Shown here: one piece after another, positions 23,348 to 37,898 of the stretch
Layout of the letters: every line of letters begins with the position of its first letter
Numbering within the stretch: position 1 is the stretch's first letter
Virus record (IMG/VR): IMGVR_UViG_2529292718_000007
Direction: 5' to 3' (one strand)
DNA from: a virus
Taxonomy: Duplodnaviria; Heunggongvirae; Uroviricota; Caudoviricetes
Length of the DNA: 49,349 bases
Notes under the pieces: model-generated
Databases searched by the model: none
Told to the model about the DNA's origin: nothing
What the model saw: the letters and a program-made list of their open reading frames with translations, nothing else
Translations under genes and position numbers: made by a program

Positions 23348-24490
23348 TTATGGTCTGCTTTTCTGTGCGAGCTTATCAGCACATGTTTTTATCAGCTCCT
23401 GTAGTGTCCTGGCTGGCAGGTTTGCATCCAGTACGCTGAGTATGCTGTTGTGATCTGCCTGGTCGACTACTTTGCCTGTCGGTGGTAATAGCTTGAGCTG
23501 AGGATTCAGGTTTTCGTCAAAGCTGATAAGTGCTCTGGCGTTTCTGAGCAGATCAAGAAGTAAGGCTGATATCACATTTTCCTGAGTCATTGCTGGCAGA
23601 TTTAGCGCCGCTTTGGTTTTCCCTGTTGCCTTGTCAAACTCCTTGATTAGTTCCTTCCTGTAGTTCGGTTCCGTTAATAGCCGATTATGCTCTGTTGCCG
23701 CGCGGATAATCGTTTTTTCCTGGTACAGTCGTTTAGCCAGATCGCGCTCGTACTGTGTTTTTAACACGCTGCTGATAGCGCTAAAGGCTTCAATGTAGGC
23801 CAGCTTGATATCCTTCACGCCTGGACCGTCGATACTTTCCATGAGCAAGGTAAATCCGTCTTTTGTCATGCGATAGATTGTTATTTCGCGGTCGCTTCCT
23901 TCCAACGGTCGTTGCTCTTTAAAGAAATGACGCGCCGCAGCTGTGCGAGGAATGCGTAACGCATCGATGGCCATAACGATGGAATTGTTTGTGGTGCTGA
24001 ATGCTTGGGCAACATCGGCTGAGGTTGTGAGTGGCTCGTTATTGCACACCTTAATGTAAAACATCGGTTTGGCGTTGAGCGTATCGACAACCTCACGAGC
24101 ATTGTTTGGCGAGACGGTTACGGTCGCGGCCGTTTGCGCGTTCTGGTTGAAGTAGCAGTCTTCCAGCCGTTCGAATACATCCCACGCCTGATCGGTTTCG
24201 AGCATTTTAGCGTGACGTGCAGCCCCGCGTTCGGTCCAGAGGATTAGTTTTCTAACGTTATTCGCGATGGTTTGAAAATCTCTTAAAGAGATTTTCAAAC
24301 TTTGGAGATCTGTACCTTTTACAATTATGAAATGTTTTCCTTCTGTAAACCGGGACTTATTACGGTGGTGATTTCTGTGAAGACATTCGACGCTACAGCC
24401 ATATAGTTTGGCAAGCAGCTCCGTGGTGATAACGGGGATCTGGTTATGCAGGATAGGCTGTAGGGTGTTAACGGTCGGAAGAGTTTTCAT
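23348..24490 (-). CDS. ant: Phage antirepressor / Rha-family regulatory protein
   Basis: 380 aa; two Rha/antirepressor-like segments (IPVITTELLAKLYGCSVECLHRN; PLTTSADVAQAFSTTNNSIVMAIDAL). Confidence 0.55.
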   Translation of the reverse strand: MKTLPTVNTLQPILHNQIPVITTELLAKLYGCSVECLHRNHHRNKSRFTEGKHFIIVKGTDLQSLKISLRDFQTIANNVRKLILWTERGAARHAKMLETDQAWDVFERLEDCYFNQNAQTAATVTVSPNNAREVVDTLNAKPMFYIKVCNNEPLTTSADVAQAFSTTNNSIVMAIDALRIPRTAAARHFFKEQRPLEGSDREITIYRMTKDGFTLLMESIDGPGVKDIKLAYIEAFSAISSVLKTQYERDLAKRLYQEKTIIRAATEHNRLLTEPNYRKELIKEFDKATGKTKAALNLPAMTQENVISALLLDLLRNARALISFDENLNPQLKLLPPTGKVVDQADHNSILSVLDANLPARTLQELIKTCADKLAQKSRP

Positions 24491-24678
24491 TTTGCACCTC
24501 CCATAACTACTTTGGTTACGAGGGAGATTTTTGCGTCAGAAACAGCGTTATCGTTGCTGGCGATGCGCATAGCTTCGCGCTCGATTATTTCAGCCAGGCG
24601 GAGTTTATCGGCGTATGAGGCTTTCTTGAGAAGGATCTTTACGAGGTTGACGTAATAGTCATGGGGTAGGTTTGTCAT
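24487..24678 (-). CDS. Small protein co-transcribed with antirepressor
   Basis: Track ORF 24487..24714; internal ATG at 24678 has GGAGA SD; stop overlaps ant start (ATGA). Confidence 0.45.
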   Translation of the reverse strand: MTNLPHDYYVNLVKILLKKASYADKLRLAEIIEREAMRIASNDNAVSDAKISLVTKVVMGGAK

Positions 24679-25431
24679 TGTGATATCTCCAGTATATGGA
24701 ACTATCACCGCCATTCGAGGCTAATCAAATGGTGGTGAGCCGTACAGGGTTAGCCTTACCGGACACAATGACGAACCGGCGCGGATTTCTCCGCCCCTGT
24801 ACGACCCACCATAATTTGGGCGTAACAGTGCTCTACGCATAAAAAAACCGCTAACGCGGTATGCGCCATCGTGTTATTCAGGAGGCTAATCCCGGCCGTA
24901 GATTTTGCTACGGCTCGGAAAGTGTCCACCAATGGCGCATTTATGTCAATACGGCGGGGTTTTAACAGAGACAACCACATAGCGTGGGTTTATTGGTAGG
25001 CAGAAACAAAAAAACCGCCCTATTGAGGACGGTTCTTTCGTGCTGATCGGATTCGCGGTCCTTTCAGCATTACGTTGTTGTATAAACAACCACGCAAGCA
25101 CAAGCAGCAAGTTAATTTTACCCAAAAGGTAATAATAGTCCACTATTATGCTTCAAAAAATTGTGGTTCTTGTTGTGCCTGCAAACTCACAGATTGTGGG
25201 TAGGTTACTGATTTTGTGAAAATAAACGAGTTTTTTCGTTTAATTTCTTTCCTATTACTAATCTTAAAATAATCGTAAAATACCTGTGGACCTTCCCGCC
25301 GATTCGCACCCGGGCACCGACTTTAGGGGAGGATTCTCCGTTGCCGTACATGCAAGCACAAGCAGCCGTGCTTGCTCTCGCGTTGTTTTCGTCGGTGGGG
25401 ATGCCGTGAAACGGCCTGTAAGGGCCATACA

Positions 25432-25554
25432 ATGAAAAAATACTGTATGTGTATTTTTATCGTTGTTACTGGGGCTTTGTTTACGCCACATGGGGAGGGT
25501 TGGAAGATTACTGATAACGCTCTGAATGTGACGATAAACATTAGCAGCAAGTAG
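25432..25554 (+). CDS. Small hydrophobic peptide (40 aa)
   Basis: MKKYCMCIFIVVTGALFTPHGEGWKITDNALNVTINISSK; followed by strong terminator. Confidence 0.3.
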   Translation: MKKYCMCIFIVVTGALFTPHGEGWKITDNALNVTINISSK

Positions 25555-25559
25555 CGATT

Positions 25560-25583
25560 AGGCCCCTTCGGGGGCCTTTTTTT
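25560..25583 (+). terminator. Rho-independent terminator
   Basis: AGGCCCCttcgGGGGCCT followed by TTTTTTT. Confidence 0.7.
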
Positions 25584-25805: not shown

Positions 25806-26054
25806 TTACTTCTGGTTGTATTGAGCCTTGAGTAACTCAAAAGACTTTGTCAGCACTTCTTTCAATGACATATCCATTGAGCTGGCGAACGTTTTGTACT
25901 CGCGTTTAAATTCAGGGTCGACGTTAAACGCCATTTGTGCCCCACCTGATTTGGTTCTGGTTGGCGTTTCAGTCGGGTCGAAAACCTGCGGTTGTTCGAT
26001 CGATGGCGGTACGCCTTTGCTGTTCTTCTTTGGTGGTTTTGATGGTGCGGCCAT
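25806..26054 (-). CDS. ParG-like ribbon-helix-helix centromere-binding protein
   Basis: 82 aa; disordered basic N-terminus then RHH-like FNVDPEFKREYKTFASSMDMSLKEVLTKSFELLK; downstream of parA. Confidence 0.7.
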   Translation of the reverse strand: MAAPSKPPKKNSKGVPPSIEQPQVFDPTETPTRTKSGGAQMAFNVDPEFKREYKTFASSMDMSLKEVLTKSFELLKAQYNQK

Positions 26055-26097
26055 GTGTATCCCCTCTTATATAAATCTATAAAACTATAATTATATA

Positions 26098-26751
26098 TTA
26101 TGCGGCAGTAGTCAGAGCCTCAAGCTGGTTGATAATCCCCTGAATAACGTCGTCTGCCTTTTTGCGTGGCGCAACGTATGAGCACTCAATGAGGCTTAAG
26201 CCCTTATCCTGAGCTTTGCTCAGAGCTGGCTTGTGGGGAATGTACTTATCGACAACAAAGTATGGCGTATTAGCCAGGTACTCTTGGGCTTCAATATAGT
26301 CAGCTTCGTTTTCAGCCGCGCCGGAAAACACCATGCAAATTTTCTTGATTGGTACACCCTTTTTAACGATGCCGTGAGCAGTGTTAACGGTGGTTTCCAG
26401 GTCATCGGTAGAGAATCGGGTTGGCAAAATAACCATATCCAGAAATTCAGATAGCTTCGGTACTGATTCAGATGCGTAGGCACCGCCATCGACGATAACC
26501 AGGTCGTATACTTCTGATTCGATGATTTTCTGGACTTGTGATGGTGTGCCGCACGGCTGCGCCGCGATTGCTGGTTCGATATTGTTGGCCATTCTGCGTT
26601 GTACCCAACGCGTTACCGTTCCGTTAAGCACATCCATATCGATCAGGCATACATTCCAGCCAGCCTTTGCATAAGCAACTGCTAAAGCACGGGCAATTGT
26701 TGATTTGGTTACGCCGCCTTTTCCGTTGAAAATACCTACAGAGATAGTCAT
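26098..26751 (-). CDS. parA: Partition ATPase ParA (small type Ib)
   Basis: Deviant Walker A GIFNGKGGVTKST; track start 26766, ATG 26751 has GGAG SD. Confidence 0.8.
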   Translation of the reverse strand: MTISVGIFNGKGGVTKSTIARALAVAYAKAGWNVCLIDMDVLNGTVTRWVQRRMANNIEPAIAAQPCGTPSQVQKIIESEVYDLVIVDGGAYASESVPKLSEFLDMVILPTRFSTDDLETTVNTAHGIVKKGVPIKKICMVFSGAAENEADYIEAQEYLANTPYFVVDKYIPHKPALSKAQDKGLSLIECSYVAPRKKADDVIQGIINQLEALTTAA

Positions 26752-26775
26752 TTGTCGAGACTCCATGTGTTTGGT

Positions 26776-37822: not shown

Positions 37823-37898
37823 GGCCCCTTAGCTCAGTGGTTAGAGCAGGCGACTCATAATCGCACGGTCATCGGTTCAAATCCGGTAGGGGCCACCA
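37823..37898 (+). tRNA. tRNA with CAU anticodon (Met or lysidine-type Ile2)
   Basis: 76 nt cloverleaf: acceptor GGCCCCT/AGGGGCC, D-stem GCTC/GAGC, anticodon loop CTCATAA, T-arm ATCGG-TTCAAAT-CCGGT, 3' ACCA. Confidence 0.85.

Follow-up and report, generated by a model that had tools for sequence, protein, structure and literature searches.

In the immI region of phages P1 and P7, the antisense RNA C4 lies within the leader of the very operon that it targets, and its two exposed segments pair with the sites a1 and b1 upstream and the sites a2 and b2 downstream of it. In control of this type, C4 is cut out of the leader by RNase P, and the block of translation comes with premature termination. 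The small ORF icd overlaps ant in this region, and the target-specificity alleles co-vary (heteroimmunity). In the isrK-orf45-anrP locus of Gifsy-1, the short RNA IsrK ends at a leaky terminator; when transcription reads through, the resulting mRNA specifies a small ORF whose translation is coupled to that of the antirepressor. Downstream of IsrK there is also STnc1160, a stable RNA produced by processing, which is complementary to IsrK (PMC4825925). A different kind of small-RNA locus is timPR, in which the RNA known as ryfA is the mRNA of TimP, a small toxin that acts on the inner membrane, and is repressed by a divergently encoded sRNA, TimR; in the published loci TimR always lies upstream on the opposite strand with a terminator behind it, and over 18 nt its 5' end shows complementarity to the 5'UTR of timP (PMC7667032). 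In Salmonella, the TimR-binding site is in stem-loop 2 (SL2), and a 7-bp pseudoknot between upper SL1 (site 1) and SL3 (site 3) is essential for translation (PMC11228461). C4, isrK/a1b1, ryfA/timP and TimR are all described families with worked-out mechanisms.

The DNA analysed here (the window, 49,349 nt) is a whole myovirus-type phage-plasmid of about 49 kb, which is non-mobilisable and carries genes for terminase, portal, protease, tail sheath, tape measure, tail fibre, a primase-like protein, ParA and a CI-like repressor (HTH plus S24 peptidase). The first-pass annotation described the interval 24679-25431 as a single structured leader of the antirepressor operon containing a 15-nt direct repeat. 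When the entire window was searched against Rfam with gathering thresholds, four families matched, three of them in or beside this interval. We are confident that the interval is instead occupied by two independent known RNA modules, back to back, whose promoters and transcript ends are predicted. Their parts are as follows.

23348..24490, minus strand: ant, antirepressor of 380 aa with ORF6N and Rha domains (Pfam, PHROGs)
24487..24678, minus strand: 63-aa ORF just upstream of ant; its stop overlaps the ant start (ATGA)
24669..24682, minus strand: C4 target site a2 (CACAAUGACAAACC), spanning the AUG (24678-24676) of the 63-aa ORF
24717..24726, minus strand: C4 target site b2 (GAUUAGCCUC), a 10-mer identical to b1 and complementary to AGGCUAA of C4
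24728..24816, minus strand: C4 antisense RNA (RF01695), 70.8 bits against a gathering score of 45, model positions 1-87 of 87
24841..24927, minus strand: isrK-like short RNA with decoy sites b1 and a1 (Rfam isrK, terminator scan)
24921..24949, minus strand: putative promoter of isrK-C4-ORF-ant, TTGACA, 17-nt spacer, GACACT (sequence reading)
25006..25108, minus strand: TimR-like antitoxin sRNA, about 102 nt (fold, pairing, likeness to K-12 timR b4811)
25115..25142, minus strand: promoter-like site of the TimR-like sRNA, TGGACT, 16-nt spacer, TAAAAT (promoter scan, 9/12)
25286..25582, plus strand: timP toxin mRNA (Rfam ryfA RF00126), 297 nt, 141.8 bits against a gathering score of 80
25432..25554, plus strand: timP ORF, 40 aa, MKKYCMCIFIVVTGALFTPHGEGWKITDNALNVTINISSK, with a hydrophobic N-terminus (NCBIfam, BLASTP)

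The individual sequence elements of the first-pass annotation are real. The 15-nt repeat GCAAGCACAAGCAGC occurs in exact copies at 25094-25108 and 25352-25366 on inspection of the sequence, the Rfam ryfA alignment contains the hairpin at the second copy (GCAAGCAC...GTGCTTGC, 25352-25359 with 25368-25375), and the two minus-strand hairpins with T-runs were recovered, the one near 24840-24865 by the terminator scan (stem 24847-24860, T-run 24841-24846) and the one near 25005-25035 by folding (about 25006-25041). On the other hand, the single non-coding ant leader of about 750 nt does not exist as such: at least three RNA genes on two strands are present, two minus-strand terminators and two further promoters interrupt 24679-25431, and relatives carry a 573-nt HTH gene in the middle of the supposed leader. 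The first base of the timP ORF, 25432, is the one directly after the end of the interval (25431). The suggestion that ant is controlled by an antisense RNA holds for the proximal 250 nt, which contain C4, isrK/a1b1, the target sites and the coupled 63-aa ORF. It does not hold for the evidence that had been offered for it, since the terminator at 25005-25035, like the 15-nt repeat and the GTGCTTGC hairpin, belongs to timP and TimR.

In the proximal part, the ant product matched ORF6N (64.8 bits) and Phage_pRha (44.7 bits) in Pfam as well as anti-repressor families in PHROGs, with E-values down to 1e-55. The 63-aa ORF matched phrog_7886 (function unknown, E 7.8e-47) and is annotated as a hypothetical CDS of 192 nt in relatives; it had no Pfam or NCBIfam match and was without similarity to a named family in Pfam, NCBIfam or PHROGs. 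It occupies what we take to be the position of icd in P1 or orf45 in Gifsy-1, and its Shine-Dalgarno sequence, GGAG, is at 24690-24687. The C4 RNA folds with a minimum free energy of -46.6 kcal/mol into a long closing stem with two internal elements, and its relatives score 70.8-77.8 bits. One segment in a hairpin loop of C4, a' (...GUCAUUGUG...), complements CACAAUGAC over the AUG of the 63-aa ORF (a2): the 14 nt of a2 are 93% complementary to C4 at 24764-24777, and the duplex energy of -25.6 kcal/mol was equalled by 1 of 500 shuffles. The other segment, b', is the single-stranded AGGCUAA of C4, which complements UUAGCCU at b2 (a 7-nt core) and at b1; the energy of the b'/b2 duplex was no better than that of shuffles.

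The isrK-like RNA upstream of C4 scored 68 bits against a gathering score of 50 for RF01394 (24841-24914, minus strand), and the c4-a1b1 model RF03163, which overlaps it at 24875-24927, did not reach its gathering score of 46.7 (36.7 bits). The decoy sites within this RNA are b1, running from 24891 to 24882, and a1 (ACACGAUGGC), running from 24874 to 24865, which pairs with a'. The predicted duplexes of the isrK-like RNA with a' and b' reached -27.3 kcal/mol (equalled by 1/500 shuffles) and -18.3 kcal/mol (9/500), respectively. The loop of isrK hairpin 1, GCAAAAUC, was also considered as a1 and was rejected, since nothing in this C4 is complementary to it; the true a1 lies downstream of b1. 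The putative promoter at 24921-24949, which the promoter scan did not call, would start transcription near 24914, in agreement with the 5' end of the isrK model.

The C4 pairings covary among the relatives. The sites b1, b' and b2 all switch from UUAGCCU/AGGCUAA to UUGGAAC/GUUCCAA in five of them (L001, L002, L003, L005 and L008), and a2/a' switch from CACAAUG/CAUUGUG to CACCAUG/CAUGGUG in L002 and L003, where a1 (CAUCAUGG) changes alongside. By analogy, such concerted switching would be as expected for specificity alleles of the P1/P7 immI type. The isrK-C4 module is common: related DNA was found in 284 phage records, mostly of Stx phages.

The minus-strand module from 24949 to 23348 is best read, in its proposed working, as a switch of the P1-immI or Gifsy-1-isrK type. 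A single promoter would yield the isrK-like RNA with b1, a1 and a leaky terminator, and beyond it C4, b2/a2, the 63-aa ORF and ant. The two exposed segments of C4 would bind b2 and the AUG-covering a2 and block translation of the small ORF, and thereby, through translational coupling, that of Ant; the short isrK-like RNA could titrate C4. The pairings and their covariation are observed here; the processing of C4 and its effect on expression are carried over from P1 and Gifsy-1.

The distal part of the interval contains the timPR module. The match to RF00126 covers model positions 1-296 of 296 (E 1.8e-36), and relatives score 134-138 bits. The mRNA ends at a terminator called at 25560-25582 by the terminator scan, and TAAAAT at 25276-25281 is likely to be the -10 element of timP. 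Within this mRNA, the TimR site with the second repeat copy lies at 25349-25366 (SL2), and pseudoknot sites 1 and 3 lie at 25315-25321 and 25391-25397. The 7-bp pseudoknot is perfect, pairing CACCGAC (nt 30-36) with GUCGGUG (nt 106-112). In K-12 it is formed by CGCUGGC and GCCAGUG (nt 30-36 and 104-110), so that the changes between the window and K-12 are compensatory. The AUG of timP is at mRNA nt 147 in the window and in K-12 alike. The 40-aa ORF aligned with NCBIfam NF040796 (toxic_TimP) over residues 1-40 of 40 at 23 bits (E 7e-5), below the cutoff of 45. In BLASTP it was 50% identical (E 2e-13) to TimP as annotated by PGAP on the Yersinia plasmid pGDT4. Pfam gave no match for TimP, the 63-aa ORF or the 82-aa ORF. 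Judged from these alignments, the predicted peptide is clearly homologous to TimP, though the curated threshold was missed. The gene has been left unannotated probably because its NCBIfam score is below the cutoff, and the records of the relatives examined carry neither an RNA annotation for either module nor a timP annotation.

The nucleotide sequence is too diverged for blastn to reach most chromosomal copies. A blastn search in distant mode did not tie the window to chromosomal ryfA, and 1 of 74 places was chromosomal; blastn reached chromosomal ryfA for the variant clade only, with about 70% identity over 200 nt. The link between the window and chromosomal ryfA comes from the covariance model and the architecture, not from blastn. 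In the K-12 annotation, timR (100 nt, minus strand), ryfA (304 nt, plus strand) and timP show the same divergent layout as in the window.

The antitoxin was recognized by position, fold and pairing; Rfam is without a TimR model, and the only matches in the TimR region were sub-threshold. These, RNAI (26.7 bits, E 0.028) and Phe_leader, were set aside as structural look-alikes. The TimR-like RNA lies upstream of timP on the opposite strand; its 5' end, GCUGCUUGUGCUUGCGUG, holds the first repeat copy (25091-25108), and two internal hairpins are followed by an intrinsic terminator (hairpin and U-run, 25006-25041). Global alignment to K-12 timR (b4811) showed a common GCUG start, a GAAAGG-CCGCGAA-C hairpin, the terminator and a three-hairpin fold, and the body of the RNA is 91-98% conserved among the relatives. 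The site at 25115-25142 probably serves as its promoter: the -10 element ends 6 nt ahead of the GCUG start, and the -35 element TGGACT is retained in most relatives. A 14-base degenerate pattern of the TimR core, when searched in viral contigs, gave mostly chance matches; 6 of 120 among the matches listed were real, and these six loci all belong to the same phage-plasmid family, so that this pattern is no reliable guide to other phages.

Nucleotides 1-18 of the TimR-like RNA pair continuously with nt 64-81 of the timP mRNA (25349-25366), with 18 bp including one G.U, in the same way as nt 1-19 of K-12 timR pair with mRNA nt 64-82. The duplex of the TimR 5' segment with timP had an energy of -35.9 kcal/mol, equalled by none of 500 shuffles. 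With the full-length TimR and timP RNAs, the energy given by RNAduplex was no better than that of shuffles; long sequences yield spurious extended duplexes in this calculation, and the 5'-segment tests were used instead.

This pairing accounts for the direct repeat. When a plus-strand mRNA contains a sequence and its antisense partner is encoded elsewhere on the minus strand, the sequence must appear twice as a plus-strand direct repeat. The 15-nt repeat reflects, at the DNA level, the complementarity between TimR and the timP mRNA: the first copy, taken on the minus strand, forms the 5' end of the TimR-like sRNA, and the second copy is the TimR-binding site in SL2 of the timP 5'UTR (mRNA nt 64-81), where it forms an 8-bp hairpin with the following GTGCTTGC, namely SL2 of the ryfA model. 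The repeat lengthens to 18 nt with one mismatch (25091-25108 and 25349-25366). In dinucleotide-preserving shuffles of the window, repeat matches with at most two mismatches averaged 0.10, and the observed number was reached in 0 of 100.

The complementarity is kept while the sequence changes. Pairing was counted over 20 pairs at six diverse loci, comprising phage-plasmid relatives, the K-12 chromosome and two conjugative plasmids, the latter chosen for strong ryfA matches (timP is PGAP-annotated on one of them). Thirteen of the 20 pairs were altered on both sides and 98.3% of the cells were paired, a figure that is inflated by setting the pairing register for maximal complementarity and to which the phage-plasmid relatives contribute only about three haplotypes. 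None of 500 shuffles was as good, and sliding the partner by 1-3 columns as a control left 22-49% paired. Among the eight fetched relatives, both copies change from G to A at repeat position 11 in L001, L002, L005 and L007, and from A to G at position 13 in L004, L006 and L008. Where only the mRNA copy has changed (A to G, U to C), A-U becomes G.U, or G.U becomes G-C. The two-sided changes are hard to account for except by RNA pairing.

These data bear on two other explanations of the repeat. One is that the whole stretch of about 750 nt is a minus-strand leader of ant, with the repeats and hairpins as cis elements or as sources of processed sRNAs acting on ant. It is true that every element lies upstream of ant, that the TimR-like RNA, isrK and C4 share the strand of ant, and that transcription past the TimR terminator could physically reach the isrK promoter region. 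Between the first repeat copy and ant, however, lie the strong terminator of TimR (about 25006-25041), the separate putative promoter at 24921-24949 and the strong terminator of isrK (24841-24860), and the second copy is upstream of the TimR promoter, within a plus-strand RNA that matches full-length ryfA. In L001, L002, L007 and L008 the plus-strand HTH gene of 573 nt divides the parts, with the isrK promoter on one side of it and the TimR terminator on the other; on account of this gene, functional coupling by read-through from TimR was also rejected. Moreover, the same repeat logic is found at the chromosomal timPR of K-12, and timPR occurs without any ant there and on the conjugative plasmids. 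We regard the single leader as extremely improbable, and the C4-ant and timPR modules are, as far as their sequences tell, independent. No more credible is the explanation that the repeats are DNA sites for a protein, such as operators of the CI-like repressor or iterons or a centromere of the ParA system. Direct repeats are typical of operators and iterons, and those in the window adjoin the partition genes (parA, 26098-26766) and are near the immunity genes. Nevertheless, there are two copies only, 258 bp apart, the sole other match in the 49 kb being far away and with 2 mismatches, and their positions are exactly the TimR 5' end and SL2 of timP. It is the complementarity that is kept across loci, not the sequence itself, and the mRNA-only changes that preserve pairing through G.U are predicted by RNA pairing, not by a shared protein motif.

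The activity of the locus is another matter: timPR might be a decaying relic here, or the ryfA-like RNA might act mainly as a non-coding regulator as in UPEC/APEC. TimP falls under the NCBIfam cutoff, one plasmid homologue (Y. similis, L132) has ryfA with no recognisable TimR, and RyfA is described as a regulatory sRNA of stress resistance and virulence in two reports (PMC8205139, PMC13188913). We consider an inactive or non-coding locus improbable, since the timP ORF is intact in all relatives, with 97.6% identity and a single amino-acid change, beside timR-timP intergenic DNA that is just 46-54% identical among the phage-plasmid variants. The Shine-Dalgarno/SL4 element, the pseudoknot and the TimR site are likewise all kept with compensatory changes, and this retention argues for purifying selection on what appears to be translation control.

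The region 25006-25582 is most probably a type I toxin-antitoxin locus of the timPR kind. In its proposed working, the plus-strand mRNA of 297 nt would encode a predicted 40-aa membrane toxin, and the minus strand would yield the TimR-like sRNA of about 102 nt in the divergent direction. By homology with the timPR of Salmonella, binding of TimR to SL2 would stop the pseudoknot between sites 1 and 3 that ribosomes need, leaving the toxin untranslated. The module lies directly downstream of the parA partition operon, and on this ground its most likely role would be to stabilise the phage-plasmid by post-segregational killing. The cognate TimR/timP pair has a predicted energy of about -34 kcal/mol, and cross-pairing with the K-12 chromosomal partners reaches -13 to -15 kcal/mol; the three TimR/timP alleles of the phage-plasmids cross-react at a predicted -27 to -34 kcal/mol. 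The pairing of the phage-plasmid is therefore predicted to be orthogonal to that of the host timPR, and a maintenance role kept apart from this host copy would be the simplest interpretation. In addition, the promoter region evolves fast (46-54% identity) beside RNAs that are 87-98% identical. One possible reading, which we put forward tentatively, is that timPR is a maintenance or abortive-infection module whose TimR specificity is insulated from the host copy, and that the promoter divergence may reflect selection on the balance of expression. If true, such an insulated module would give timPR a concrete function on a mobile element.

The carriers form a family of non-mobilisable E. coli plasmids of 47-49 kb, with 61 PLSDB records and presence in 72 of 5426 complete E. 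coli genomes, and three Yersinia phages (vB_YpM_39/41/44) fall in the same family. The novelty is modest: a divergent, unannotated timPR next to the partition genes of this 47-49 kb phage-plasmid family; we found no paper in the literature that describes timPR on a phage or phage-plasmid. The chief value of the analysis is a correction, in that an apparent long leader consists of known small-RNA genes missed by genome annotation. It also means that a type I toxin-antitoxin system so far studied as chromosomal is present on a widespread E. coli phage-plasmid family, with a predicted pairing specificity distinct from that of the host copy. A relative (plasmid NZ_CP009073.1) is present in E. coli ATCC 25922, which should be a handy system for probing timPR function.

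Finally, the two modules can be set beside their described counterparts. The proximal module is like P1/P7 immI in the embedded C4, the paired a and b sites, the small ORF overlapping ant and the co-varying alleles. It differs in that the small ORF is unrelated to Icd by family matches (only phrog_7886), that a2 spans the start codon, and that the a1b1 element scores under the gathering score of RF03163; moreover, the main repressor of P1 is C1, whereas that of the window is CI-like (HTH plus S24 peptidase). With Gifsy-1 it shares the short isrK RNA, the terminator, the downstream coupling of an ORF to the antirepressor and a complementary downstream RNA; it differs in that the coupled 63-aa ORF of the window lies downstream of C4 without overlapping it.

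The distal module is like timP/TimR (ryfA/ryfB) of Salmonella and E. coli (PMC7667032, PMC11228461, PMC13000454) in its divergent sRNA of about 100 nt and mRNA of about 300 nt, the 5' 18 nt facing mRNA nt 64-81 in SL2, the terminators on both RNAs, the AUG at +147, the hydrophobic peptide of about 40 aa and the 7-bp pseudoknot between sites 1 and 3. On the other hand, the copy in the window lies beside parA on a phage-plasmid and the chromosomal copy between sseA and sseB, the gap between timR and timP is 177 nt in the window and 398 nt in K-12, the DNA is too diverged for a blastn link to most chromosomal copies, and the pairing sequence differs. On Yersinia pseudotuberculosis pGDT4 and Serratia plasmids, ryfA matches score 214-235 bits, a TimR-like sRNA is encoded upstream of them on the other strand, and pairing extends over 20-28 bp; timP is named by PGAP on pGDT4, whereas neither RNA nor the ORF is annotated in the relatives of the window that were examined. 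Those carriers are conjugative plasmids (IncFII/MOB) in whose transfer region timPR lies, in contrast to the non-mobilisable phage-plasmid that carries it here.

The timR-timP intergenic (promoter) region of the phage-plasmid, between the gene for a TimR-like antitoxin RNA and that of the small toxin TimP (window 25109-25285), shares 46-54% identity among phage-plasmid variants, and the RNAs that flank it share 87-98% among the same variants. On these alignments, this region stands out as a spot where divergence or recombination is locally concentrated. In some relatives, a plus-strand helix-turn-helix gene of 540-573 nt has the isrK promoter on one side and the TimR terminator on the other, at a position equivalent to window ~24950-25005:

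L001 2453-3025, plus strand, helix-turn-helix gene
L002 3395-3934, plus strand, helix-turn-helix gene
L007 953-1525, plus strand, helix-turn-helix gene
L008 953-1525, plus strand, helix-turn-helix gene

In the comparison of the window with its eight fetched relatives (L001-L008), in contrast, this gene is absent between the two elements in the window and in L003-L006.

Three further features were located in the window:

25806-26766, minus strand, operon of parA (222 aa) and an 82-aa ORF, ending just downstream of the timP terminator
37823-37898, plus strand, tRNA-Met gene with anticodon CAT, carried on the phage-plasmid
24721-24840, minus strand, predicted 39-aa ORF, starting directly after the isrK terminator and overlapping the whole C4 antisense RNA

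The 82-aa protein of the parA operon, for which no family match was found, may be a centromere-binding partner. The convergent timP gene and parA operon are separated by the timP terminator hairpin (25560-25582), which was called only in the plus-strand orientation by the terminator scan and might stop transcription from both directions.

A ryfA/timP homologue (179.5 bits) is also present at 1336-1812 of a Yersinia similis plasmid (NZ_CP007231.1), with a match to Ysr224 RNA upstream on the same strand. No TimR-like complement was found upstream of this homologue, the best pairing being 11 bp; this may be a case of an orphan toxin, or of one with a different antitoxin.

The loop of isrK hairpin 1, GCAAAAUC (window 24896-24903), is the same in all relatives and is also conserved in the Rfam c4-a1b1 consensus, and no complement to it occurs within the C4 RNA of the window. 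In position, the predicted 39-aa ORF is the analogue of Gifsy-1 orf45/STnc1160.
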